Part shown: piece after piece, positions 13,347-53,308 of the stretch
How positions within the stretch are numbered: position 1 is the first letter of the stretch
Layout of the letters: each line of letters begins with the position of its first letter
Notes under the pieces: generated by a model
Database searches by the model: none
The model's input: only the letters and a program-made list of their open reading frames with translations
What the model was told of the DNA's origin: nothing
DNA from: Candidatus Cloacimonadales bacterium
GTDB lineage: Bacteria > Cloacimonadota > Cloacimonadia > Cloacimonadales > JAIOQZ01
Reading direction: 5' to 3'
Assembly: GCA_963665815.1 (NCBI GenBank)
Contig: OY762463.1
Location: 2,592,001 to 2,656,000 of the forward strand
DNA length: 64,000 nt
Made by a program: the position numbers and the translations under genes

Positions 13347-15911
13347 TTATTTCATTAATACCATTTTACTGATTTTTGTCTCTTTTGAAGTTTGAATTTT
13401 GTAGAAGTATATACCACTGGAAACAGTATCACCATCAGAGTTTTTACCATTCCAGACTACTTCATGATCACCTGAGAATTGTTTTTCTTTGACGATTGTA
13501 TTAACTTTCTGTCCTTTAAGATTATAAACAGCGATGCTAACATCAGATTCTTCAGAAAGTGAATATTGAATTACAGTTTCCGGATTAAACGGATTAGGGT
13601 AGTTACCTTTTAGGGTAAGTGCAGATTTAACTTCAGGAGCATCAGTTACCTGTGGAATTGGTCTTCCTCCTCCACCAGCACTTGAGTAATCGAAGAAGTA
13701 TACCGCTCCCCCGGAAGGATCGTCCGGAGCACCTACAATAATTGTTGAACCGTCGTAATCCATTGCTGTGCCGAAGTTGTCGGTACCAGAGCAATGTGAT
13801 GTGAAAGTATCGCAAATAGTTGAACCTGATTCTAAGTAAACATATACATAATCTTCACAACTTACAACAGCAAAATTGCCATCCTTTTCGATATTATAAA
13901 TTTGATAAGCCGGATTTATTGAATATACACTGAAGGGATAGTCAGGATTATTATTCAAGTGGAATCTTTCATCTGATCCACCTTGTTTATAATAAACAGC
14001 AGTTCCGACATAATCAATATTTGGAATATTTCCAAAGTAGAATCCATAATTACCTGTACACATTGGAAAAGCTGTAATCCTCTTATCTATCGATACCATC
14101 TTTCCATAATCATTGCAACCACAATTGTTAAAAAGAGAATAACTATTTCTATTGACTAACGAGTCGCCTCCTGAACTAAAGAAACTCACAGCACCTACGT
14201 CTATGTAATAACCTCCTATTTCCTGTATTGTTCTCTCAGGTGAGCCGGCAATAATAATTCCATGATCACTGATATCGATATCATAACCTAATTGTTGATA
14301 ACATTCATCCCCTGTCCATGTATATGGTCTGCTTTCATAACTGTATAATGTTTGATCTAATGGATAATAAGCAACTTTACCAACATCTATATCTGTTCCA
14401 TCATCGTACCGAGGAATTCCTACAGCAAGGTTTCCATTGATGTCTATCTCAAATGTAGTACCAATTTGTTCGTTTGCTTCTCCAAACAAAACATCCCTTA
14501 ACGACCACTCTTCTGAAGTACTATTATACTTAAACAAATAAATTGCTCCACATTGATAATGTGTTATAAATCCGTTATCATGTTGACTGTATAAAGGAGC
14601 TCCAACAGCCAGATAAACGCCATTCATGGACAGGTGTGCTCCAAATTTTGAATCAGAATTATATGGATCAGAATAATATGTAACAGGACCTGAATATTCC
14701 CAGATATCATTATCATTCTTCCTATATGTTACTACTCCATTTGGATGAGAGGCTGCTGCATTATCTCCGTAAACAGCTACTTGTTGTCCAATTTCTGAAG
14801 TGCTTGATGGCAAATAGTTTGAGTATACGTCATAAGTTTCTGGAACACTATCTCTTGATAATACAACAAACTCAAACTGTTCTAATTCAGTTCCATTTGT
14901 TTCAGGGTTAAGAGTTTTCACTCCATAGAAGTCACCGCAATCTTTGTAGCTAATCATGTGACGAGTGTCTAATGAAACTGAATTTTTAAAGACATACAGG
15001 TTATCTCCATCACTGAGAACAAAGTTACATACATCTTCATATGTACCATTAGTACCCATATCACTTGACATCAGGTAGCTTCTAAGATTGAGACCATCTA
15101 CATCTGTCTGATTCAGTGCTACTTGTATACCATTAACTACATCTCCATTACATTCTCCAATCCAATACATGAGATAATGAAAGAAAAGTTCATCAATTGT
15201 AGCATCATTATCTGACACATTATTGTTGAAGTCATGATAATAAAACCAGTCACACGCATCATTGAGAAAATCTTGTATAGCTGATCTACATGTGTTATCA
15301 AGGTTGCAATCAGCAATGAAGCTATATGTAATTGAAGTACTTAACAGACTATCTTCAAAAGTAAAAGGATGATTTCCTTCATAGCTTGTACCCTCGGAAA
15401 CATGACCAAGTATTGTCTTTACATCATTTTCAGCTGGTTGTTTCAATTTAAGAGGATCAAAATCACTGACATTGGTTGTCCAGTAATAGGCAGCATTCAT
15501 TTGCTCGCCATTGTCTGCATCAATGCTTAGTGTATCACTATCATAATATTTTTTGCTTCCTCTGCAAAAGAATCTCTGGCAGTCATATTCATTATAATAT
15601 TCATCAGGACCAATAAGGTTACTTCCATCAGCATAATAAATTACACCGTATCCATTATCATTATCCTTATACTGCAAAGCTGTTGGCCAGTCATATATAA
15701 GATAAGGAACCTGATATGAAGCATCATTTGACATTAATATTAAAAAGTCGTAATAATCGAAAGGATCGTTGAATTCTCCAGCAGCTTGTTCTTCTACTGA
15801 AAGAGTGTAATTATTTTTCGCCAGCATGGCAACCATATCACCATTTGCGAAAAGAATACCAGTTAACAAAATTGAAACTAATACGAGAAAGATAACTTTC
15901 TTAGTTGTCAT
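13347..15911 (-). CDS. Secreted multidomain protein: degenerate class II glutamine amidotransferase (Ntn)-like domain, FG-GAP-like propeller, FlgD-Ig/T9SS-type C-terminal domain
   Basis: Signal peptide; DNGYGVIYY, GHV, NHPFTF, NFVLSDG motifs; FG...LAVGAP...GAIYLF repeats; NYPNPFNPET...VWNGK...SSGIYFY; ATG 15911 with GGAGG. Confidence 0.78.
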   Translation of the reverse strand: MTTKKVIFLVLVSILLTGILFANGDMVAMLAKNNYTLSVEEQAAGEFNDPFDYYDFLILMSNDASYQVPYLIYDWPTALQYKDNDNGYGVIYYADGSNLIGPDEYYNEYDCQRFFCRGSKKYYDSDTLSIDADNGEQMNAAYYWTTNVSDFDPLKLKQPAENDVKTILGHVSEGTSYEGNHPFTFEDSLLSTSITYSFIADCNLDNTCRSAIQDFLNDACDWFYYHDFNNNVSDNDATIDELFFHYLMYWIGECNGDVVNGIQVALNQTDVDGLNLRSYLMSSDMGTNGTYEDVCNFVLSDGDNLYVFKNSVSLDTRHMISYKDCGDFYGVKTLNPETNGTELEQFEFVVLSRDSVPETYDVYSNYLPSSTSEIGQQVAVYGDNAAASHPNGVVTYRKNDNDIWEYSGPVTYYSDPYNSDSKFGAHLSMNGVYLAVGAPLYSQHDNGFITHYQCGAIYLFKYNSTSEEWSLRDVLFGEANEQIGTTFEIDINGNLAVGIPRYDDGTDIDVGKVAYYPLDQTLYSYESRPYTWTGDECYQQLGYDIDISDHGIIIAGSPERTIQEIGGYYIDVGAVSFFSSGGDSLVNRNSYSLFNNCGCNDYGKMVSIDKRITAFPMCTGNYGFYFGNIPNIDYVGTAVYYKQGGSDERFHLNNNPDYPFSVYSINPAYQIYNIEKDGNFAVVSCEDYVYVYLESGSTICDTFTSHCSGTDNFGTAMDYDGSTIIVGAPDDPSGGAVYFFDYSSAGGGGRPIPQVTDAPEVKSALTLKGNYPNPFNPETVIQYSLSEESDVSIAVYNLKGQKVNTIVKEKQFSGDHEVVWNGKNSDGDTVSSGIYFYKIQTSKETKISKMVLMK

Positions 15912-16068
15912 AAATTCCTCCAAATTTACATTTAATGCTGATTCCTCCAGGACGGTACCACTCCCTGAATAAAATCATAAAATCCCAAATAAACTTATGT
16001 GTACCATACATACATATAACAATATTGAACCGATAAAATAAATATTGTCAATAAAAAAATATCAGGTT

Positions 16069-16482
16069 GGTATCCCCCCGTTTTTTCTTGAAAATCTGAT
16101 TTCAAGAAAATTGGAAGGATTTTTAGCAGACATTTCTTAGAAAAATGCATTCTTCATTTTCTTTGGTGCCAAAGAAAACGAAACAAAAGAAAATGGAGAA
16201 GTTGATGAAATTGTAAATTTCATCGAAAAGCACTCTTTTTAAAATGTATTTCCAGTAAACTGGAACCATAAATTTTTCCTGAAATCCTTCCAAGGCTTCA
16301 GGATTTCTTAACGGTTAAATTTATTATACAGTAAAAAAGAGAAAATGCTATCATCAATGCAAAACAATCATACTTAATTAAAAGCTATTACATTGATTCA
16401 TATTTTCCACTGATTTACTGTTTCAAAACTTTTATTTATAATAAGTTATATATACATTGTATTTGGTTTTCGGGGGGATGCC
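16069..16482. mobile_element. MITE-like non-autonomous element, complete copy
   Basis: TIRs GGTATCCCCCCG / CGGGGGGATGCC; flanking direct repeat AAAAAATATCAGGTT (16054-16068, 16484-16498); second copy at 52947-53308; no ORF. Confidence 0.85.
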
Positions 16483-16513
16483 TAAAAAATATCAGGTTTA
16501 ATGTAATAAAAAT

Positions 16514-16554
16514 TTGACATGTTTAGAATTATTCTTAAATTGTAATCATAACAA
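16514..16554 (+). promoter_or_regulatory. Sigma70-type promoter overlapped by two Per/Fur-like 7-1-7 boxes
   Basis: TTGACA 16514-16519; TTAGAAT-T-ATTCTTA 16523-16537 and TTGTAAT-C-ATAACAA 16540-16554 resemble TTATAATNATTATAA; directly upstream of perR. Confidence 0.7.
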
Positions 16555-16571
16555 AAATGAAAGAGGTTGCT

Positions 16572-16982
16572 ATGGACTGGAAATTTGTTCTAAGAGAAAA
16601 GGGTATTTCACCCACGTTCCAGAGACTGCAGATTATTGCTTATCTTGAAGAGAACAGAGTTCATCCTTCAGTAGAGATGATCTATAACGAGTTGAAGAAT
16701 CTCATTCCTACTCTGTCAAGAACAACTGTATATAATACTATGAAGCTTTTTCAATCTTCTGCCCTGGTTAAACCTATATTATCAGAAAACAACGAGATAC
16801 ATTATGAGTTCAACATGGAACCTCACGCTCACTTTGAATGCACAGAATGCGGTAAAATCTATGATGTTTTTGAGGAATTCGAGTTTATTAAAGATAAGAT
16901 TGTTGATGGTCATAAAGTTACTGAACATCAGATTTCACTCAAGGGAATATGTTCTAAATGCTTAGAGGAGAAAAATGCCTGA
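16572..16982 (+). CDS. perR: Fur-family peroxide stress regulator (PerR-like)
   Basis: TFQRLQI, HPSVE, SRTTVYNT, HAHFECTECG, GICSKC; heads an oxidative-stress operon. Confidence 0.85.
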   Translation: MDWKFVLREKGISPTFQRLQIIAYLEENRVHPSVEMIYNELKNLIPTLSRTTVYNTMKLFQSSALVKPILSENNEIHYEFNMEPHAHFECTECGKIYDVFEEFEFIKDKIVDGHKVTEHQISLKGICSKCLEEKNA

Positions 16983-17784
16983 ATTACCTGAAGTTCAGAC
17001 AATTGTAACAGAGTTGAAATCCGGTGTACAAGGGAAGATTATCAAGGGTATTGAATCCTTCAGGGAAGGTACTGTTGAAATCTTCGGTGATGAACTGAGT
17101 AGTGATGAATCTATCACAGAAGTTTACAGACGAGGAAAGTATATTATTATCAAAACTCTTCGTAATACAATTGTGGTTCATCTCAGGATGACTGGTAAGC
17201 TGATTCTTGATAATCAGATTCCTGAAAACCTCAAGCATATCAGAGCTGTCATTTCTTTATACGATAACACATTCATTATCTTCGATGATGTCAGGACTTT
17301 TGGAACTATAAGGATTTATCCTGCAAGTATGTCTATTTCCAGTCTGGAAAATCTCGGTGTTGAACCTCTCTCAGAAAGCTTTAATGCAAGTTACCTGAAG
17401 GACAGAATAAAAAACAGTAAGTCTCCCATTAAAAATATCTTGCTTAATCAACAGATAATTGCTGGAATAGGAAATATATATGCGTGTGAAATCTTGTTCA
17501 GATCATTGATAAATCCTACAGCAAAACCTCATGAATTATGTAACGATGATATAGTAAAAATTGTTAAGAATACAAAAGAAGTTCTCAAAGAAGCTATCAA
17601 GTGTAACGGTACAACTATTTCCGATTATAGAAGAGTTGATGATAAACAGGGAAGTTTTCAGAATTTTCTACAAGTTTATGGAAAGGAAGTATGTCCGTTA
17701 AATCATAAAATATTAAAAATAAAACAAGCTGGCAGAACAACATATTATTGTCCTGTCTGTCAGAATCAGGAGATTATAAAATGA
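16975..17784 (+). CDS. mutM: Formamidopyrimidine-DNA glycosylase
   Basis: MPELPEV, RRGKY, HLRMTG, IAGIGNIYACE, GTTISDY, C-terminal zinc finger. Confidence 0.96.
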   Translation: MPELPEVQTIVTELKSGVQGKIIKGIESFREGTVEIFGDELSSDESITEVYRRGKYIIIKTLRNTIVVHLRMTGKLILDNQIPENLKHIRAVISLYDNTFIIFDDVRTFGTIRIYPASMSISSLENLGVEPLSESFNASYLKDRIKNSKSPIKNILLNQQIIAGIGNIYACEILFRSLINPTAKPHELCNDDIVKIVKNTKEVLKEAIKCNGTTISDYRRVDDKQGSFQNFLQVYGKEVCPLNHKILKIKQAGRTTYYCPVCQNQEIIK

Positions 17785-28841: not shown

Positions 28842-29159
<318 letters not shown>

Positions 29160-29603: not shown

Positions 29604-30086
29604 ATGAAAAAAAATATTGTGACAATACTATTCCTTTTAATGGCATTATCTGTTTTCGCTCAGAAAAATATAGGAGTTACCGGCTTTCTGGACAGAGAAT
29701 CAACACAGATTAACGTCTCTGTGAGACCAAACCAAACCGCTGAACTGATTGGAATGTTTGCACTGAATTCCTCTGAAGACCAATATAGCGAAACTAAATT
29801 TGGATTAGCATTAAGAAGATACATCAGATCTGGAAAAATTGAACCATTCGCCGGTGCACACTTTAAAACCATACTGCTTAATATTGATCATGGTGGTGAT
29901 GCTGCAGATTTTGTTGTCGGAGTAAATGGTGGTGCTCAATATGCAATTATGGAAAACTTATATGTAGGTTTCCAGATGGAGTTCAATATGAATATATCTG
30001 ATGATAACTCATTAAGGTTTAATAACCCCGGCAAAAATACCTACAATACATCAGTTTCACCTTTATATATAACAATATACTGGTAG
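29604..30086 (+). CDS. Small outer-membrane beta-barrel protein
   Basis: Signal peptide, amphipathic strands, GGAQY, C-terminal YITIYW; AGGAG RBS. Confidence 0.75.
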   Translation: MKKNIVTILFLLMALSVFAQKNIGVTGFLDRESTQINVSVRPNQTAELIGMFALNSSEDQYSETKFGLALRRYIRSGKIEPFAGAHFKTILLNIDHGGDAADFVVGVNGGAQYAIMENLYVGFQMEFNMNISDDNSLRFNNPGKNTYNTSVSPLYITIYW

Positions 30087-36052: not shown

Positions 36053-38638
36053 ATGAGAAAATCCATTTTCATAATTCTGATATTCACTTTCGCATTACTG
36101 CATGGAGAAGTCTTTAATCCTGTAAATCCCGAAGTTCACTCTCTTGTCTGGAAATCTGTTACAGATCCGGAAGTAGTTTACTTCATGGACAGACTTGGGT
36201 TGAGACCGGAGAATTTCGCTGAAACATACTACCAGACATACAAATGCGATTCTTATGAAGTTCAGGTAATGCTTAAGAAAGACAAAATCTGGAATATCAA
36301 GTATACTTTTCCTGATCCGATGACTGCTGAAAAGACTTCCGAACCAATTATGAAGTACTATGGACTATCTCATATTTATGAAGAACCGGACCATAAAATA
36401 TGGAAAGATGATGATGACAGATTTGGAGAGGGGAGTATTGAATACGTTAAAAAGAATAATGAGGATTTTCTTACACTTGCAAGACTTGATGATAATAATA
36501 AGGAAATAATTGAAGTTTACTACGCAAAACAAGATGATAAATACATTGTCAATCTTATATATGTCTACGGTGAATTTCCCAAAGAATATAAGAAAGAATG
36601 GGCAATGGAGGCTGAGAATTACTACTCTACAATCTCTGAAGAAAGAAAAAAAGATATAGAAAATGCATTCTCAGATGACCCGGAAGTAAAAAAAGCTGTC
36701 GCCCAAAAAGCGAAGAAACTACCTAAGCCGAAAATTGCTGCCCGAATCGATCCAGAATTAGCTGCTGAAGCTGAAAAAAGGGAGAGAATGGAATCAGTTA
36801 TCACAATCTGGGATGATTACATCATTGATAACTGGAAAATTACAGAGCTGACGAAGTTATTCTCACTCACAAACATAAGTGTTGATGATCTGAAAATGCT
36901 GATAGATAAGTTTGGCTTCACTAAATCATATTACGAAAAATATACACATCCTGAAAAGAAATACTCTTTTCAGTTTACAAAAAACGATGAGAGTTTTTAT
37001 CTCTCAAAAATCGAAATCCCTGTTACTTATGGAGATTCTTTTCCTTCTATAGGTCTCGAAGAGGAAGTTACCCTTGAAAAACTGGAGAAAAAGTACGGAT
37101 TATGCTGGTACAAGAACATAAATTTATCACCATATACTATTCATGCTTCCGGACATTCATCTCAAAAGAAATATAACATGGATTTCTCATTTGAAAGAAA
37201 AGCGTACTCAGATATAATCAATAAAATTGAGATTACTCTGAATGACAAAGAGTATCGTGAATTCGACGGACAAATAACATTTAAAAAAGGCGAATCTCTC
37301 TGGGGGGATTGTGAAAACGGGAAAGGCATATACAAGTATACAAACGGCAAATGGGTTGTCGGATTATTCAAAGATGGAAAGAAAACTCATGGATATGCAG
37401 AAGATTATGACCCATTAAAGGTTGTAGAAGAAATTGGTTATCAGGATAGACATCCCTGTTCATTTGCACGCAGAATTGATAATTCTGTCTGGGGGAAACT
37501 TCTAACTCATAAGATCGGTTTATCAGCCATGACCTGGGCTTTTAACAAGAAAGACTATACGAAAGAAGACTGGGATATACTGAAAAAGAATTACTGGTTT
37601 AAGCATGACTCCGGAGTATACAGGTCTCCGGATGGTAAGATTTCTCTTATAGCTCCTACCAATGGACATTACATTAAGGAGATTGCTTTAAATATAGATA
37701 ATGAAAATGATTTAAAATCCCTTGGTCTGGCGAAGCATTACTCCAAGCAGGAACTTGAGAGAATATACGGATATGAGTACATCGGATATAGCAGCTCATA
37801 CAGAACAATTATGATTCCTGAAGGTGACGAGGATAAGAATAACCACATTATAATGGTCCTGGGTCTGAACACAGCGGAGAATAAAATAACAAAAGCCCAA
37901 CTCAGCCCAATTAATCCGGAAAAAATTATCGTAGGTAAAACACTCAGGTATATCGCAACCGGAATTGTGAATAAACCCGGAGTTACTTATCAATTTGCGG
38001 ATGGACCACGATTTGTTGGAACTGTTCGGGGAGGTATTCCATTTACCGGGACAATCTTTGACTATATGACTGATACAAGTTTAATGACTCTCAGGTCATA
38101 TAAACCGGATCAGGGATTTGCACCGGCATTTATTGCCAATGCAGAGAAAATGAGAGATCCACTGCTGAAGCATATGGATAGATTTGCAATTGAAATCAAT
38201 GCATTCAGAGAAGATGAAAAAGAAATGGCACTTAGTATGGAAGGTTATATGGAAAAACCGGAAGAATCGGAATTCTATTCAGGGTGGATTAAGGAATCTG
38301 CCACCAAAGCTGAAAAGCATATTAAAAAAGCCAGGCTGCACATGGACAACATTTTTGATCTTGTCGGAAAAGCTGATCTGGAGTGTAATATTGCTTCAAC
38401 CCATATTGCAGAGATATATACAAGTTTATCCTATTTCCAGGATCTTATTGGTACTGCCAGAAAACTTGCTCAGAATAATAGAGAAAGAGCATATAAATAT
38501 AAGGAAGTTCTGGAAAAGTACAATAAGTATGACAAGCAGATGAGAGGAGCCTATGACAGCTTGATATCTGATCTGGAAAACTGTGGATATTTCAATAAAA
38601 TGTATGAAATGGGAAAGAAGGAAATGGATAAAGAATAA
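36053..38638 (+). CDS. Large secreted hypothetical protein, tandem paralog A
   Basis: Signal peptide; MORN-like WGDCENGKGIYKYTNG...GLFKDG; colinear homology to next gene. Confidence 0.8.
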   Translation: MRKSIFIILIFTFALLHGEVFNPVNPEVHSLVWKSVTDPEVVYFMDRLGLRPENFAETYYQTYKCDSYEVQVMLKKDKIWNIKYTFPDPMTAEKTSEPIMKYYGLSHIYEEPDHKIWKDDDDRFGEGSIEYVKKNNEDFLTLARLDDNNKEIIEVYYAKQDDKYIVNLIYVYGEFPKEYKKEWAMEAENYYSTISEERKKDIENAFSDDPEVKKAVAQKAKKLPKPKIAARIDPELAAEAEKRERMESVITIWDDYIIDNWKITELTKLFSLTNISVDDLKMLIDKFGFTKSYYEKYTHPEKKYSFQFTKNDESFYLSKIEIPVTYGDSFPSIGLEEEVTLEKLEKKYGLCWYKNINLSPYTIHASGHSSQKKYNMDFSFERKAYSDIINKIEITLNDKEYREFDGQITFKKGESLWGDCENGKGIYKYTNGKWVVGLFKDGKKTHGYAEDYDPLKVVEEIGYQDRHPCSFARRIDNSVWGKLLTHKIGLSAMTWAFNKKDYTKEDWDILKKNYWFKHDSGVYRSPDGKISLIAPTNGHYIKEIALNIDNENDLKSLGLAKHYSKQELERIYGYEYIGYSSSYRTIMIPEGDEDKNNHIIMVLGLNTAENKITKAQLSPINPEKIIVGKTLRYIATGIVNKPGVTYQFADGPRFVGTVRGGIPFTGTIFDYMTDTSLMTLRSYKPDQGFAPAFIANAEKMRDPLLKHMDRFAIEINAFREDEKEMALSMEGYMEKPEESEFYSGWIKESATKAEKHIKKARLHMDNIFDLVGKADLECNIASTHIAEIYTSLSYFQDLIGTARKLAQNNRERAYKYKEVLEKYNKYDKQMRGAYDSLISDLENCGYFNKMYEMGKKEMDKE

Positions 38639-38664: not shown

Positions 38665-41232
38665 ATGAGAAAAACAATTATATGCGTTTTGTTTCTAATT
38701 TCATTAATTACTCTGTTTGCAGAGTTTGATCCAATATCTCCGGAGATTCAATCTTTGATAGGGAAACCTGTAACAGACCCGAAAGTAATCTACGTCATGG
38801 ATAAAATTGGACTAATACCCGAAAAATTCGCTGATACTTCTTATCAGACATATAAAGCAGATAATTATGAATTACTGATAATGCTGAAAAAAAATAAAAT
38901 ATGGTATATAACGCTAACTTTTCGTAATCCTGAAACTGCTGAGAAAGCTTCTAAACCAATTCTTAAACACTATGGTATACCTTATGTTTATCAAGAGCCT
39001 GATCACAAGAAATGGAAAGATGGAAATGATTATCTGGGTGATGGAACAATTGAGAACACATTAAAGTATGGTGGAAATCACTTAGTATTGTATCACTATA
39101 AAGATAAAAATGATATTATCAGCCAGATATACTATAATAAACATGATGATAAGTATGTTGTTGGTTTGATATATATTTATGGTGAGTTCCCCAGAAAATA
39201 CAAGAAAAAATGGCAGGACGATGCTGACAAATACTATTCTACAATATCTGATGAGAGAAAAGCAGATATTGCAAATGCATTCTCAGCTGACCCTGAAGTT
39301 AAAAAAGCTGTTGCACAAAAAGTGGAAAAATTATCTAAAATGAAAATTGCTGCTCAGGTTGATCCCGTTATTGCTGCAAAAGTAGAGAAAATGAAAAAAA
39401 TGGCATCTGTTGTGACAATATGGGATGAGTATCTTAAAGATGAATGGAAAATTTTAGAACTGATCAGGATGTTTTCTCTTACAAATATCAGTGATAATGA
39501 CCTTCAAATGCTGATAGATAAGTTTGGATTTGATAGATCATACACCTATTATACGCATCCGGACAAAAAGTATAGACTAATTATTGAGCATGCTGGTGAT
39601 AGTTATAGATTAACAAAAATTGAGATTCTTACTCAATATGGAGATACTTATCCATCAATTGGACTTGATGAGAAAGTAACGCTTGATTATCTTGAGAGTA
39701 AATTTGGATTATGCTGGTATAAATATTCAAATGAGTCACCTTATGAAGTCTTTGCCTCTGGAAATAAGGATAATTCCGATCATAACATCAAGTTTCAATT
39801 TGTTCGAGGAGCATATGAAAAAAAAATTAAAAGAATTTCTATCGAATTGACTAATCGAGAAGGTTTTTTACTTGATGGGAATATCAATTTTCTAACTGGT
39901 GGATGCTTGTGGGGAGATTGTGAAAACGGTAAAGGAATATATCAATATACTAATAACAAATGGGTTGTCGGTTTATTTAAGGATGGAAAGAAAACTCATG
40001 GTATTCCTGAAGATTATAATGCAGAGAAAATTCTTGAGGAAATTGATTATCAGAAAAAAAATCCATGTTCCTGGGCAAGAAGACTTGATAATTCTGTCTG
40101 GGCCAAACTATTGTACAAGGAGAATGGAATTTCTGCCATAACTCTGGCATTCAATAAGAGAGATTTTTCTCATGAGGACAGAGATATATTATTAAACAAC
40201 TACTGGTTCAAATATGAGTATAACTGGTATAAATCACCTGATGGGAAGATATCTTTTGAAGTCCCCAAAAACAGCAATTACATTCATCAGATGGTTATTC
40301 ACATTAATACACTTGAAGATCTTCAATCTTTTGGTTTTGAAAGACATTATTCCAAACAGGAACTGGAGAGCATGCTTGGATATGAATATGTAAGGTATTC
40401 CAATAGTTTTAATGCTGTATTGGTGCCGAAGGATGATCCTGATAGGAATAATCATCTTCAGATTAGTTTGGGACTGAATACTACAAAAAATACAATTACA
40501 AGTGTTACATTAAGACCCTTCAACAAGGAAAAGATTCACATAAGCAATACACTTGTTTTTCTAAAAACAGGTTCTCTTGAGAGACCTGATGTAACATTTC
40601 AGTTTGCGGATGGACCCAGATTCATTGGAAAAACATTTATGGGTATTCCCTGGACCGGAACAATATATGCCTATCATAGAGACATAGACTTCATGAATCT
40701 TCAGTCCGGTAAACCTGATAGAGGTTTTGCTCCGGAATTTATCAGAAAAGCTGAAGAAAATGCTGATCCCGCTTTCAAAGCTATAAACAAGTTTACGCGA
40801 TTAATGGAAGCATATAGAGAAGATGAGATGACGATGCTTGAGCACCTTACAAATCTTGCAGAACACCCTGAGGATAACGATAAATATAAGCGTGCGGTTC
40901 TTGATGCCTGCAAGAAAGCTGAATACAAACTAATTGATGCTCGCAGTACATTTAACATTGTATTTGTAAATGTTGAGAGAAGTGAATTAGACTGTAAGAT
41001 TGCTTCAACAGAAATAGCTAGGATTTTTACCAGTCTTTCCTACTTTAGAGAAGTTCTTGATACTGCCAGAAAGCTGGTTAAGCAGAATGGTAAGAAGACT
41101 CCGGAAGATGAAAAGATAATGAATGGTTACGAAGAGTATGATAAGCAAATAGTTAAATCTTATGACAGTCTTGTCTCAGCTTTATTTGATTGTGGATTTT
41201 TCCAACGAGATCCTGAGAAGTGGAGTAAATAA
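38665..41232 (+). CDS. Large secreted hypothetical protein, tandem paralog B
   Basis: Signal peptide; same motifs as paralog A along the full length. Confidence 0.8.
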   Translation: MRKTIICVLFLISLITLFAEFDPISPEIQSLIGKPVTDPKVIYVMDKIGLIPEKFADTSYQTYKADNYELLIMLKKNKIWYITLTFRNPETAEKASKPILKHYGIPYVYQEPDHKKWKDGNDYLGDGTIENTLKYGGNHLVLYHYKDKNDIISQIYYNKHDDKYVVGLIYIYGEFPRKYKKKWQDDADKYYSTISDERKADIANAFSADPEVKKAVAQKVEKLSKMKIAAQVDPVIAAKVEKMKKMASVVTIWDEYLKDEWKILELIRMFSLTNISDNDLQMLIDKFGFDRSYTYYTHPDKKYRLIIEHAGDSYRLTKIEILTQYGDTYPSIGLDEKVTLDYLESKFGLCWYKYSNESPYEVFASGNKDNSDHNIKFQFVRGAYEKKIKRISIELTNREGFLLDGNINFLTGGCLWGDCENGKGIYQYTNNKWVVGLFKDGKKTHGIPEDYNAEKILEEIDYQKKNPCSWARRLDNSVWAKLLYKENGISAITLAFNKRDFSHEDRDILLNNYWFKYEYNWYKSPDGKISFEVPKNSNYIHQMVIHINTLEDLQSFGFERHYSKQELESMLGYEYVRYSNSFNAVLVPKDDPDRNNHLQISLGLNTTKNTITSVTLRPFNKEKIHISNTLVFLKTGSLERPDVTFQFADGPRFIGKTFMGIPWTGTIYAYHRDIDFMNLQSGKPDRGFAPEFIRKAEENADPAFKAINKFTRLMEAYREDEMTMLEHLTNLAEHPEDNDKYKRAVLDACKKAEYKLIDARSTFNIVFVNVERSELDCKIASTEIARIFTSLSYFREVLDTARKLVKQNGKKTPEDEKIMNGYEEYDKQIVKSYDSLVSALFDCGFFQRDPEKWSK

Positions 41233-52946: not shown

Positions 52947-53308
52947 GGAATCCCCCCTTTTTTTCTTAAAAATCTGACTTCAAGAAAATTGGAAGGATTT
53001 TTAGCAGGCATTTCTTAGAAAAATGCACTCTTCATTTTCTTTGGTGCCAAAGAAAACGAAACAAAAGAAAATGGAGAAGTTGATGAAATTGTAAATTTCA
53101 TCGAAAAGCACTCTTTTTAAAATGTATTTCCAGTAAACTGGAACCATAAATTTTTCCTAAAATCCTTCCAAGGCTTCAGGATTTCTTAACGGTTAAATTT
53201 ATTATACAGTAAAAAAGAGAAAATGCTATCATCAATGCAAAACAATCATACTTAGTTCAAAGCTATTACATTGATTCATATTTTCCACTGATTTACTGTT
53301 TCAATACT
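52947..53308. mobile_element. MITE-like element, second copy, truncated at right end
   Basis: 362 nt colinear with 16069-16430, about 10 substitutions by manual comparison; right TIR not found. Confidence 0.85.

Follow-up and report, generated by a model that had tools for sequence, protein, structure and literature searches.

The repeat and its insertion site

The window analyzed here is a stretch of 64,000 nucleotides from the genome of a Candidatus Cloacimonadales bacterium (G000; GCA_963665815.1, contig OY762463.1, positions 2,592,001 to 2,656,000). At 16069..16483 it contains an element of ~415 bp (boundary ±1 nt, unstranded). The element opens with the left terminal inverted repeat GGTATCCCCCCG (16069..16080, plus strand) and closes with the right one (16471..16482, minus strand), which reads CGGGGGGATGCC on the plus strand. 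The two repeats pair at 11 of 12 positions and are kept at the ends of all full copies, 16 in number. The element is flanked by the target-site duplication AAAAAATATCAGGTT (16054..16068, unstranded), found as an identical 15-mer on the right side (16484..16498, unstranded). The source genome holds 17 copies with 84–100% identity, 16 of them with both ends; their flanks are unrelated, and their target duplications measure 15–16 bp, up to 18. At the matching position of a sister species (G001) the site is empty and holds a single diverged copy of the target 15-mer. The largest ORF of the element encodes 56 aa. A second copy in the window (52947..53306, unstranded) retains the left end and the core, is short of ~110 bp at its far end, where it has no inverted repeat, and is 97% identical to the first copy over 300 nt. 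The termini carry the end motif GGAATCCCCCCG; left ends vary between (T)GGAATCC and (T)GGTATCC, and right ends read CAGGCATCC, TAGGCATCC or CATGCATCC. Within G000 these end motifs are confined to the copies themselves, two mini-derivatives and a few solo sites, and neither an end pair at kilobase spacing nor an autonomous partner with such ends was found there. Judged by its ends and copies, the 415-bp repeat is a true miniature inverted-repeat transposable element (MITE), a non-autonomous DNA transposon. Its terminal inverted repeats and 15-bp target duplication point to insertion by a DDE-type transposase acting in trans.

Outside the left end lies a −35-like box, TTGACAA (16045..16051, minus strand), which points away from the element. 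TTGAC occurs 15–22 nt outside the left end in 17/17 copies, and the full TTGACA in 14 of them, while TTGTCAA is not enriched genome-wide in G000 (974 sites, equal to its reverse complement). MITE copies are situated upstream of genes, not downstream. This pattern suggests a striking target choice, always ~18 bp upstream of a TTGACA box. In two respects the element recalls the IS1202 family. According to the accessible part of the source, the direct repeats of the ISTde1 subgroup measure 15–17 bp (10.1101/2022.12.17.520857), similar to the 15–16 bp of most MITE copies, and in the related ISAba32 subgroup the distance and orientation of insertions relative to a specific motif are fixed (10.1101/2022.12.17.520857), which resembles the near-fixed distance seen here. 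However, ISTde1 inverted repeats begin with 5′-TGT, whereas the MITE ends start with TGG/GGA and CAGG/TAGG/CATG.

The structured core

The original prediction described this repeat as a densely folded candidate mobile non-coding RNA. Every motif that it named is present where it was placed: the hairpin TTTTCTTGAAA-N6-TTTCAAGAAAA in the left arm (16083..16110, unstranded; halves at 16083-16093 and 16100-16110), the stems CTCTTTTT/AAAAAGAG, ATAAATTT/AAATTTAT, GATGAAATT/AATTTCATC, TTTTCTTTG/CAAAGAAAA, TGTAT/ATACA and TTCCAG/CTGGAA, and the mirror repeat AAAGAAAA..AAAAGAAA. The left-arm hairpin lies outside the core module and occurs in MITE copies only, as does the adjoining 12-mer TTGGAAGGATTT (16111..16122, unstranded), a complement of 16282-16293. 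The core itself comprises the central ~195 nt (16152..16346, minus strand), with the RNA 5′ end near 16346 and the 3′ end near 16152, and is matched by the covariance models R1 and R2 with 129.9 and 128.2 bits. Taken as 199 nt, it has a folding energy of −54.7 kcal/mol for the minus and −52.9 for the plus strand; shuffled means are −33.5 and −31.4 (z −5.5 and −5.7), and 0/200 shuffles fold as stably on either strand.

In the module a basal stem surrounds two hairpins, and an H-type pseudoknot forms the 3′ part; all parts described below are given for the minus strand. The basal stem (16234..16240/16334..16340) has changed on both sides at 4/5 modelled pairs, with variants such as UCUUUAUCA/UGAUAAAGA, and the second basal helix, TGTAT/ATACA (16245..16249/16326-16330), at 4/4. 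A long helix, ATAAATTTTTCC/GGTTAAATTTAT (16268..16324; 11/12 pairs changed on both sides), surrounds a conserved junction (RNA CGUUAAGAAAU) and an inner hairpin (16282..16306) with the stem AAAUCCU/AGGAUUU and the 11-nt loop GAAGCCUUGGA (16289-16299). Here the original prediction had drawn a TCCTGAA/TTCAGGA hairpin, which is not retained in Bacteroidota; the conserved helix is instead the overlapping AAATCCT/AGGATTT (16282-16288/16300-16306), which covaries across genomes. Its stem appears as AAUUGGC/GCCAAUU, AAUUUUC/GAAAAUU, AAUUUCU/AGAAAUU and others, with 97.1% of cells paired, while the loop GAAGCCUUGGA stays near-fixed across relatives. The other hairpin of the pair, TTCCAG-N4-CTGGAA (16250..16265), is variable: its third pair is CG in 8, UA in 5 and AU in 2 copies within the genome, and in Bacteroidota the sequence is wholly different with pairing retained. 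An optional hairpin, GATGAAATT/AATTTCATC (16204..16224), separates pseudoknot stem 1 from the third strand; it is missing from 10/12 stand-alone cores and 5 MITE copies. On the modelled strand a predicted RNA of ~170–190 nt would end in ...CAAAGAAAAUGAA.

A pseudoknot with the signature of a triple helix

The terminal hairpin, UUCG-UUUUCUUUG/CAAAGAAAA-UGAA (16152..16183, minus strand), forms stem 2 of the pseudoknot and includes a conserved G.U pair. Of its cells 99.9% are paired. The outer pair is GC in 33 cases, CG in 12, UA in 6, AU in 1 and GU in 1, and the G.U pair is GU in 47, AU in 4 and GC in 2. The hairpin loop, RNA GCAC (16166..16169, minus strand), is the 3′ half of pseudoknot stem 1 and pairs with the 5′ half, RNA GUGC (16230..16233, minus strand), in a manner that covaries in relatives. 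Across the 53 tails of alignment A6, 4/5 pseudoknot pairs have changed on both sides, with 62 double-change cells against 22.6 in shuffled data (0/500) and 7–47 in slid controls. Helices of at least 5 bp form between an X segment and its own loop in 28/68 cases, and in 348/4428 cross-pairings.

Upstream of the terminal hairpin on the folded strand runs a U-rich third strand, RNA UUUCUUUU (16185..16192, minus strand), the mirror image of the 5′ strand of the hairpin. In the standard type and its variants, the sequence of this strand follows from that of the purine strand, without change of direction, by A→U and G→C. Variants that maintain the parallel register are L106 and L275/L276 (UUUUCUUU with AAAAGAAA), the second copy of L131 (UUUUUUCUUU with AAAAAAGAAA), L201/L214 (14 nt), L128 (9 nt) and L099 (U6/A6), as well as L274, where one additional U in the third strand is matched by one additional A. 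Third and purine strands co-vary in this way in no fewer than five variant types that arose independently. A few copies (L172, L176, L183, L152) have changes in the three strands that are not compensated. A signature of a U.A-U triple helix, formed by the U-rich strand and the last hairpin, is supported by these sequence comparisons. The original prediction, in which the mirror repeat of a minus-strand transcript was read as a possible U-A.U triple helix, is strengthened by the co-variation of third and purine strands and by a covarying pseudoknot that would position the third strand. An antiparallel reading of the third strand fails in L106, L131 and L201/L214. The connector from pseudoknot stem 1 to the purine strand is just 0–3 nt, which is sterically tight for a 4–6-bp stem; knot and full hairpin may therefore be alternative states that do not form together.

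Selection on the fold and its strand

Alignment A7 (33 sequences) has 90.1% of cells paired against 73.5% when shuffled, 36/49 pairs that change on both sides against 25.5 (reached by 0/500 shuffles; slid controls 13–19) and 266 double-change cells against 90.7, figures to be read in the light of the fact that A2, A5 and A7 were fitted to the model and that many of their rows are kin, by which the shuffle controls overstate support. The within-genome set A1 has 9 pairs changed on both sides against 5.8 in shuffled data (4/500). Because the core occurs without MITE arms and in other phyla, with compensatory changes in all helices, comparative evidence clearly indicates that the fold is under selection beyond the need of terminal inverted repeats, in line with the functional fold that had been proposed for the element.

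The folded strand is most likely the minus strand of the window, as suggested by the comparison of relatives. The minus strand is the more stable one in 31/31 and 30/30 relatives, and G.U outnumber A.C combinations by 91 to 61 in a model-fitted alignment, which moderately favors the same strand. In the first, plus-oriented within-genome alignment the G.U signal is carried by few columns. The conserved G.U of the last hairpin alternates with A-U.

Distribution and gene context

Beyond the MITE, G000 carries 12 stand-alone cores without MITE arms and 2 partial ones, and G001 has 21 strong covariance-model matches. One of these loci in G001, L034, is a clean insertion of ~360 bp with a 34-bp flanking duplication, missing at the matching G000 site; the copies L059, L069, L070, L071 and L075 are likewise missing at their matching sites. 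Around the stand-alone G000 copies at genome positions 1733314 and 2880130, G001 is rearranged. Among Bacteroidota, carriers are Aquimarina (4 matches), a Saprospiraceae MAG (2) and Flavobacterium sp. BFFFF2 (84; E<=0.01). With 18 candidates scored per genome, strong matches occur in 2/151 sampled Cloacimonadota, plus 4 single weak ones, and in 3/151 sampled Bacteroidota. The module architecture was recognized in 71/80 metagenome loci fetched and in 1/11 viral loci, where a pattern scan had produced the 11 loci and the covariance model confirmed L131 alone; a phage collection searched with the GC-rich form gave no match. At least three different composite repeats contain the module, and its stand-alone cores have neither inverted repeats nor a regular target duplication. 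Going by these occurrences, the cargo of the MITE is one copy of an older, independent module of ~175–195 nt. Tandem arrays and partial units of the module are found in Flavobacterium.

At metagenome loci the neighboring ORFs are unrelated housekeeping genes without any gene association, and the loci examined have no consistently adjacent large ORF. On the folded strand, 9/12 stand-alone G000 copies are immediately preceded by the end of a co-directional gene; at metagenome loci the 3′-side gene in most cases runs toward the element (~22 vs 9, a rough reading). Relatives share no conserved promoter-like motif upstream of the fold and no conserved canonical terminator downstream of it, which leaves the mobile non-coding RNA of the original prediction, taken as an RNA gene, a candidate. 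A scan flagged the last hairpin of the window's copy as terminator-like on the minus strand. Three Aquimarina copies have a hairpin and U-run at the 5′ edge of the module.

Candidate partner proteins were also sought. TnpB (PF07282) is found in 0/5 carrier genomes, with a control matched in 8/14 genomes, and a search of G000, a closed genome, for the reverse transcriptase family PF00078 gave 0 matches. CsrA, proposed as the partner of the loops of TwoAYGGAY RNAs, is encoded in G000 and G001 (PF02599) and in 0/3 Bacteroidota carriers. The 11-nt loop has one conserved GGA motif; another GGA is part of a stem and lacks conservation in Bacteroidota. A general role as a CsrA (Csr/Rsm) sponge was rejected because, among these carriers, only G000 and G001 encode CsrA.

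Relation to known RNAs and repeats

The comparison with Rfam that had been suggested for this element yielded no already described family. In the region 15500-17000 of the window, Rfam 15 has no family at or near its gathering score and no match to RF01731 (TwoAYGGAY) at E<=10; likewise nothing reached or approached a gathering score on 3 Bacteroidota loci or on 34 metagenome and viral loci, and RF01731 matched 0/5 carrier genomes at E<=1. The cut-off of RF01731 is 43 bits, and the positive control, locus L272 of Pseudoalteromonas sp. NC201, scored 56.7 bits. At this locus the RF01731 match is followed, in the same orientation and just beyond the Rfam model, by a module-type tail in the order GUGCC, U-rich strand, UUUUCUUUG, GGCAAG, CAAAGAAAA. 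Because this tail lies directly 3′ of a TwoAYGGAY RNA in Pseudoalteromonas, the module appears to be a relative of that RNA class, a new variant of the FCB group (Cloacimonadota/Bacteroidota).

TwoAYGGAY RNAs (Weinberg et al. 2010, PMC2864571) share with the module a basal stem around two hairpins, and they are likewise multi-copy, intergenic, patchy and mobile-like. In the available part of a recent preprint, extended TwoAYGGAY RNAs have a 3′ pseudoknot, a median of 11–23 copies per genome and a mobile-like spread, and are largely limited to Pseudomonadota (10.64898/2026.09.22.753630); the word 'triplex' does not occur in its main text, where 'triple' is found three times, each time within 'triplet'. 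Judged by the Pseudoalteromonas L272 tail, the 3′ pseudoknot appears to be common to the extended form and the module. There are also differences. TwoAYGGAY RNAs have two AYGGAY loops, whereas the module has one invariant loop, GAAGCCUUGGA, and a free tetraloop hairpin; the extended form is found largely in Pseudomonadota, whereas the hosts of the module are Cloacimonadota and Bacteroidota; and, unlike TwoAYGGAY, one module copy here rides in a TIR-bounded MITE.

Triple helices formed by an ENE and an A-rich tract are known from MALAT1, MEN-beta, KSHV PAN and plant and fungal transposon ENEs. These have in common with the predicted fold of the module a run of U.A-U triples broken by one C+.G-C, the strand order (Hoogsteen U-strand, Watson-Crick U-strand, 3′ purine strand) and an association with mobile-element transcripts. 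In ENEs, however, the clamp is the internal loop of a long hairpin, whereas in the module it would be a short covarying pseudoknot stem; the module is bacterial and ~60 nt long at this part, and its RNA 3′ end at the purine strand is a predicted one. H-type pseudoknots with major-groove triplexes are found in telomerase RNA and in the SAM-II/SAM-V and preQ1-II riboswitches. Their topology is the same, with stem 1, a U-rich loop 1 that occupies the deep groove of the second stem, and then stem 2 itself, but the putative triplex of the module is much longer (8–14 triples) and its loop 3 only 0–3 nt. In contrast to these riboswitches, the module has no riboswitch-like gene association, and their Rfam models do not match it.

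BOX, RUP, Correia/NEMIS and ERIC are modular intergenic repeats, each confined to a genus or family. Like the module, they are short, non-coding, multi-copy, modular and RNA-folding, and lie near promoters or gene ends; the module differs in that its fold is retained with covariation across phyla. A full-text literature search found no described triple-helix repeat in Bacteroidetes, and the accessible text of Brewer et al. 2021 (PMC8632094) contains no Bacteroidetes or triple-helix motif. The FopS sRNAs of Bacteroides are unrelated; the accessible part of their description presents them as 65–70-nt sRNAs of Bacteroidaceae (PMC11697453).

Proposed explanation and alternatives

The explanation favored here, with a probability of roughly 55%, is that the MITE carries a TwoAYGGAY-variant triple-helix-knot module made as a stable RNA with a protein-docking head. 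A DDE-type transposase acting in trans would paste the MITE in ~18 bp upstream of a TTGACA box. The module would be produced as a small and very stable RNA, in which the last hairpin (UUUUCUUUG/CAAAGAAAA) is predicted to accommodate the UUUCUUUU strand in its major groove, giving a triple helix of U.A-U and C+.G-C. By analogy with MALAT1/ENE-type elements, this knot may lock and protect the RNA 3′ end. A protein could then dock at the invariant loop GAAGCCUUGGA and at junction CGUUAAGAAAU, and the RNA might act as a decoy or scaffold. Copies would reach new sites as passengers of MITEs and other composite repeats.

A selfish element would equally account for the patchy distribution and the bursts in copy number. 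A purely selfish structured repeat would have no host role; its fold would be recognized, as ssDNA or RNA, by the machinery that copies or moves it, and the MITE would be one of several vehicles. Copy numbers from 1–4 to >80 per genome, patchiness across phyla, presence and absence that differ between sister species, the tandem arrays and partial units of Flavobacterium and the residence of the module within at least three different composite repeats all suit this idea. The preprint on TwoAYGGAY, in its accessible part, likewise views the expansion of that class as mobile-element-like (10.64898/2026.09.22.753630). Moreover, ssDNA tolerates G.T wobble, which makes the strand asymmetry compatible with DNA. 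We nevertheless regard selfishness alone as somewhat doubtful, given that no candidate enzyme was found in the searches for PF07282 (0/5 carriers) and PF00078 (0 in G000), that stand-alone cores have no inverted repeats or regular target duplication, and that a near-invariant 11-nt loop and junction amid freely covarying stems is typical of the ligand or protein site of a working RNA. It is less probable still that the module is not a free RNA and acts in cis within read-through transcripts, as a REP/BIME-like 3′-end stabilizer, insulator or terminator. The frequent location of stand-alone copies at gene 3′ ends (9/12 G000 copies co-directional), the convergent 3′-side genes at metagenome loci (~22 vs 9, read roughly), the hairpin and U-run at the 5′ edge of three Aquimarina copies and the terminator-like flag on the last hairpin in the window would agree with such a role. 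Yet the neighboring genes are unrelated, any promoter-avoiding insertion would give the same orientation bias, the U-tract precedes the hairpin and so does not make a canonical intrinsic terminator, and the MITE copies lie upstream of genes.

The original prediction had placed a 12-bp complement, 16111-16122 with 16282-16293, at the heart of a pseudoknot or switch. The sequence match between TTGGAAGGATTT and 16282-16293 is real, and by estimate ~0.04 such matches are expected by chance in 415 bp; pairing would also mask the conserved loop, as a MITE-specific on/off device. The pseudoknot or switch is unsupported, however: the complement is found in the MITE only, being missing in all 12 stand-alone cores and all other taxa, and arm variants at 555220, 1138244, 975848 and 2330166 are uncompensated, which makes it very unlikely to be the functional heart of the element. 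Guide RNAs of Cas12/TnpB have a scaffold that ends in a pseudoknot, followed by variable sequence. The module, a pseudoknot-ended scaffold before variable sequence, resembles them, and its flanking duplications, long and variable in length (15, 34 bp), are reminiscent of target-primed insertion. One might thus envisage an RNA that guides or templates an enzyme of a mobile element, either a TnpB/IscB omega-RNA whose guide is the flank or the template of a retroelement. The occurrence of PF07282 in 0/5 carriers (control 8/14) and the absence of PF00078 from G000, together with the lack of a consistently adjacent large ORF at the loci examined, renders this scarcely credible, and for the resident genomes the PF07282 and PF00078 searches refute it.

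Returning to the stable, protein-docking RNA, a wider version can be put forward tentatively: several phyla may make small RNAs in which a MALAT1/ENE-like triple-helix knot closes the 3′ end, and these RNAs may carry lineage-specific protein-binding heads and multiply like transposons. If so, the heads would be AYGGAY hairpins in Proteobacteria and the GAAGCCUUGGA loop in the FCB group, and a mobile element would seed ready-made stable decoy RNAs beside host promoters, with the MITE landing just upstream of −35 boxes. An uncatalogued repeat of Cloacimonadota and Bacteroidota is now tied to the TwoAYGGAY class, and the part common to that class would be the putative 3′ triple-helix tail, which lies outside the Rfam model; a tail-based model should recover many more members and aid the search for partner proteins. 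With the MITE, a transposon acts as carrier of a structured RNA module. The known long RNA triple helices are those of a few eukaryotic and viral RNAs and of short riboswitch knots. The module is an abundant bacterial triple-helix candidate, in which the three strands co-vary as a triplex demands.

Mobility of the repeat

The ~415-bp repeat at window positions 16069-16483 is a MITE bounded by GGTATCCCCCCG and CGGGGGGATGCC(T), with a longest internal ORF of 56 aa and the duplication AAAAAATATCAGGTT on both flanks (16054-16068 and 16484-16498). The closed 3.96-Mb genome that holds the window (G000) has 17 copies with 84-100% identity, 16 of which keep both ends; the remaining copy, at window ~52947-53306, is truncated. 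A duplication of 15-16 bp (once 18 bp) brackets every copy, and the flanks are unrelated between copies. In the sister species (G001) the flanks of the window MITE are adjacent and the duplicated 15-mer is single, an empty site which indicates that the window insertion is recent. G000 also contains a 113-bp derivative in which an internal deletion joins the left arm to the right end (1898326-1898438), and a 54-bp palindrome formed by the two MITE ends only (3249022-3249075). A solo end-like motif lies on the minus strand of the window at ~48839. Two copies (L006 and L007; G000 1444084 and 2330166) are identical over at least 60 nt of left flank and differ in their right flanks, which suggests rearrangement through recombination between MITE copies.

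No longer element bearing the MITE's ends was found in G000. Direct repeats of 15-17 bp, similar in length to those of the MITE, are described as characteristic of ISTde1, a subgroup within the IS1202 family (10.1101/2022.12.17.520857). However, the ends reported there for this subgroup start with TGT and those of the MITE do not, so this family is a lead only for the enzyme that would move the element. The 17 copies share one orientation, with a TTGAC located 15-22 nt beyond the left end and directed away from the element; TTGACA is complete in 14 of the 17 left flanks, and the box of the window copy is at 16045-16051. In 11 of the 17, an ORF of at least 80 aa begins 15-145 nt beyond the box. 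The MITE thus inserts just upstream of -35-like boxes and appears to target the upstream edge of such promoter elements. TTGTCAA is not enriched genome-wide in G000 (974 sites).

A separate core module with a conserved fold

The central ~195 nt of the MITE (16152-16346) constitute a module that is independent of it. BLAST and a covariance model of this core (R1) located the module, ~175-195 nt long and devoid of MITE arms, at 12 more G000 sites together with two partial variants; some arm-less modules are embedded in other repeat families that have arms of their own. Copies of the module may or may not contain the inserted hairpin GATGAAATT/AATTTCATC. G001 has 21 strong matches, several at the same sites as in G000 and others missing at the corresponding G000 site, among them L034, a clean insertion of ~360 bp flanked by a 34-bp duplication. 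At L066, G001 carries a tandem pair separated by 373 bp, where G000 (3274690-3274883) has one partial, diverged copy. Among 151 sampled Cloacimonadota, with 18 candidates scored per genome, strong matches were restricted to G000 and G001, and four genomes gave one match each of ~50 bits. The core was not matched in six further genomes of the same family.

Predicted folding energies of the central 199 nt are -54.7 kcal/mol (minus strand) and -52.9 kcal/mol (plus strand), whereas shuffles average -33.5 and -31.4, respectively; none of 200 shuffles folded equally well on either strand. On the window minus strand, taken 5′ to 3′, the fold starts with a basal stem followed by a short second helix. 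Next come a long helix, which holds junction CGUUAAGAAAU and an inner hairpin whose 11-nt loop is GAAGCCUUGGA, and then a free second hairpin; the basal helices are completed by their return strands, after which the tail follows. The stems listed in the original prediction were all found in place; its TCCTGAA/TTCAGGA pairing overlaps the AAAUCCU/AGGAUUU helix and is lost outside Cloacimonadales.

Comparison of 33 sequences from five sources demonstrates, at the level of covariation, that the fold is under selection. Paired cells amount to 90.1% (73.5% when shuffled), two-sided change affects 36 of 49 pairs against 25.5 in shuffles (0/500; slid controls 13-19), and double-change cells number 266 versus 90.7, in an alignment that is fitted to the model and includes kin, so that the controls flatter the result. 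A within-genome MAFFT alignment gives a weaker signal in the same direction (9 pairs versus 5.8; 4/500). The inner hairpin stem occurs as AAAUCCU/AGGAUUU, AAUUGGC/GCCAAUU, AAUUUUC/GAAAAUU, AAUUUCU/AGAAAUU and AAUUAUU/AAUAAUU while its loop is unchanged.

Pseudoknot and triplex signature of the tail

The tail, comprising the last ~60 nt, carries a pseudoknot and the sequence signature of a triplex. It is composed of X, UUUCUUUU, G-N, UUCG-UUUUCUUUG, X′, 0-3 nt and CAAAGAAAA-UGAA, where X pairs with the hairpin loop X′. This pairing is GUGC/GCAC in the window and has many compensated versions elsewhere: UGCC/GGCA, UGUC/GACA, CGUC/GACG, UUCCC/GGGAA, GCGACC/GGUCGC, GCGGCC/GGCCGC, GCUGC/GCAGC, GGCUC/GAGCC and CUUGAU/AUCAAG. 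In a gap-free alignment of 53 distinct tails, four of the five pseudoknot pairs change on both sides, with 62 double-change cells against 22.6 in shuffles (0/500; slid controls 7-47), and the hairpin-closing pair is GC in 33, CG in 12, UA in 6, AU in 1 and GU in 1. The position of X′ on the 5′ side of the purine strand rules out a single ordinary duplex between X plus the U-rich strand and X′ plus the purine strand, so that the U-rich strand must be oriented parallel to the purine strand. This predicted arrangement is the geometry of an H-type pseudoknot that holds a U.A-U / C+.G-C triplex in its major groove. The connector that follows X′ has 0-3 nt, which is little for a stem of 4-6 bp, and thus the hairpin top may open, or the pseudoknot and hairpin pairings may alternate.

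In tails with non-standard hairpins the third strand is altered too, in such a way that the parallel register persists. Aquimarina L106 and Cloacimonadota L275/L276 combine UUUUCUUU with AAAAGAAA, and the second tail of viral contig L131 combines UUUUUUCUUU with AAAAAAGAAA. L201/L214 have a 14-nt third-strand match in which the Watson-Crick strand is mismatched and the third strand is not, L274 answers one extra A with one extra U, and the match extends over 9 nt in L128 and U6/A6 in L099. Single uncompensated changes occur in L172, L176, L183 and L152, which we read as decaying copies. The original observation is confirmed, and the original prediction stands in its main point and in its predicted triplex; the 12-bp pseudoknot that it selected is judged wrong, and an RNA function is putative.

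The folded strand is quite likely the minus strand of the window. Its predicted stability exceeds that of the plus strand in all 31 Cloacimonadales cores (mean -45.5 versus -34.7 kcal/mol), and the equivalent strand is likewise favored in all 30 Bacteroidota cores (-67.5 versus -60.8 kcal/mol). The G.U pair conserved in the terminal hairpin (GU in 47 tails, AU in 4, GC in 2) becomes an A.C mismatch if the other strand is read, and the triplex requires the U-rich strand. In Pseudoalteromonas, the tail is in the minus-strand-equivalent orientation relative to a match to the Rfam family TwoAYGGAY (RF01731). Wobble counts in the fitted alignment (91 G.U versus 61 A.C) are only moderately one-sided. 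The folded form may be single-stranded DNA of the minus strand.

Distribution and kinship with TwoAYGGAY

An exact-pattern scan with the most conserved 25-mer matched 18 loci in one Cloacimonadales MAG, as well as Aquimarina litoralis, a Saprospiraceae MAG and Flavobacterium sp. BFFFF2, whose copies keep the architecture with different stem sequences. Covariance-model matches in the latter three number 4, 2 and 84, respectively, and only 2 of 150 other sampled Bacteroidota gave a match. Flavobacterium sp. BFFFF2 contains arrays with units 270-550 bp apart, full units alternating with 86-nt tail-only partial units (for example L114 and L123); GGCCC in its full units has two alternative pairing partners, the hairpin loop and an upstream GGGCC.

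A 23-mer from the tail was found in at least 121 metagenome contigs and 11 viral contigs; of the 80 metagenome loci with DNA retrieved, 71 were confirmed by a second covariance model of the core, R2, as was 1 of 11 viral loci. At many of these loci the same 3′ tail follows a different, larger, GC-rich 5′ domain. Metagenome members of this class (L161, L185, L173, L156, L142, L193, L145, L158, L178 and L184) are at least 230 nt in total, their 5′ domain is much larger, and their conserved blocks include CCCAUUG, GCCGAGCA, ACUGUYUGAGC-hairpin-GAGUU and GAGRAGCRCAGGG. Because junction CGUUAAGAAAU and its helix are shared by this class, and also by L273 and L274-L277, the GC-rich domain may be a homolog of the window module's inner hairpin that differs in its apical part. 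On the Aureibacter tunicatorum plasmid pAT2, L273 (168969-169157) matches the GC-rich 5′ domain beneath an annotated 62-aa 'hypothetical protein', an ORF call that may be spurious, with a primase-like gene on one side and two tyrosine recombinase genes on the other. Another subclass of metagenome loci (L169, L208, L159, L177, L147, L221, L204, L149 and L198) has a second small hairpin after the tail, and the loop of this hairpin complements the few bases that come next (for example UCGCCC-UUCA-GGGCGA-AAC-UGAA); changes here are compensated, so a second pairing, knot-like or alternative, results.

Rfam 15 had no match on the window, on three Bacteroidota loci or on 34 metagenome/viral loci, and RF01731 had none in five genomes carrying the module. 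A BLAST search of plasmid records with a GC-rich member matched the tail in two Pseudoalteromonas megaplasmid records; in one, an RF01731 match (56.7 bits) stops exactly at the start of the tail, which is outside the Rfam model. A September 2026 preprint describes TwoAYGGAY RNAs of Pseudomonadota that have a lengthened basal stem, additional hairpins and a 3′ pseudoknot and are present at a median of 11-23 copies per genome (maximum 202), often with flanking repeats; it proposes that they may be Csr/Rsm sponges with mobile-element-like spread, and reports the extended form as largely limited to Pseudomonadota (10.64898/2026.09.22.753630). In the main text of this preprint 'triplex' is absent and 'triple' appears only as 'triplet'. 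The module is a new FCB-group variant of this class, borne here by a MITE.

Possible roles of the module

The module has a mobile vehicle. We favor, at a probability of roughly 55%, the statement that it is a stable small RNA whose 3′ end would be sealed by the triplex knot, with the invariant loop and junction as the presumed site of protein binding; the functional part of this statement is putative and its weak half. Less likely is the main rival, in which the repeat is purely selfish and its fold promotes only its own spread. The neighbors of module copies are unrelated genes, and the copies favor gene 3′ ends.

Several candidate partners were rejected. None of 5 carriers encodes the TnpB domain PF07282 (the control was positive in 8 of 14 genomes), G000 lacks reverse transcriptase, and CsrA is present in the two Cloacimonadales carriers and 0 of 3 Bacteroidota carriers. 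Three other direct-repeat pairs in the window, with 72-82% identity (36491-36790 and 39103-39402; 37265-37500 and 39874-40109; 28867-28927 and 29644-29704), are probably paralogous genes.
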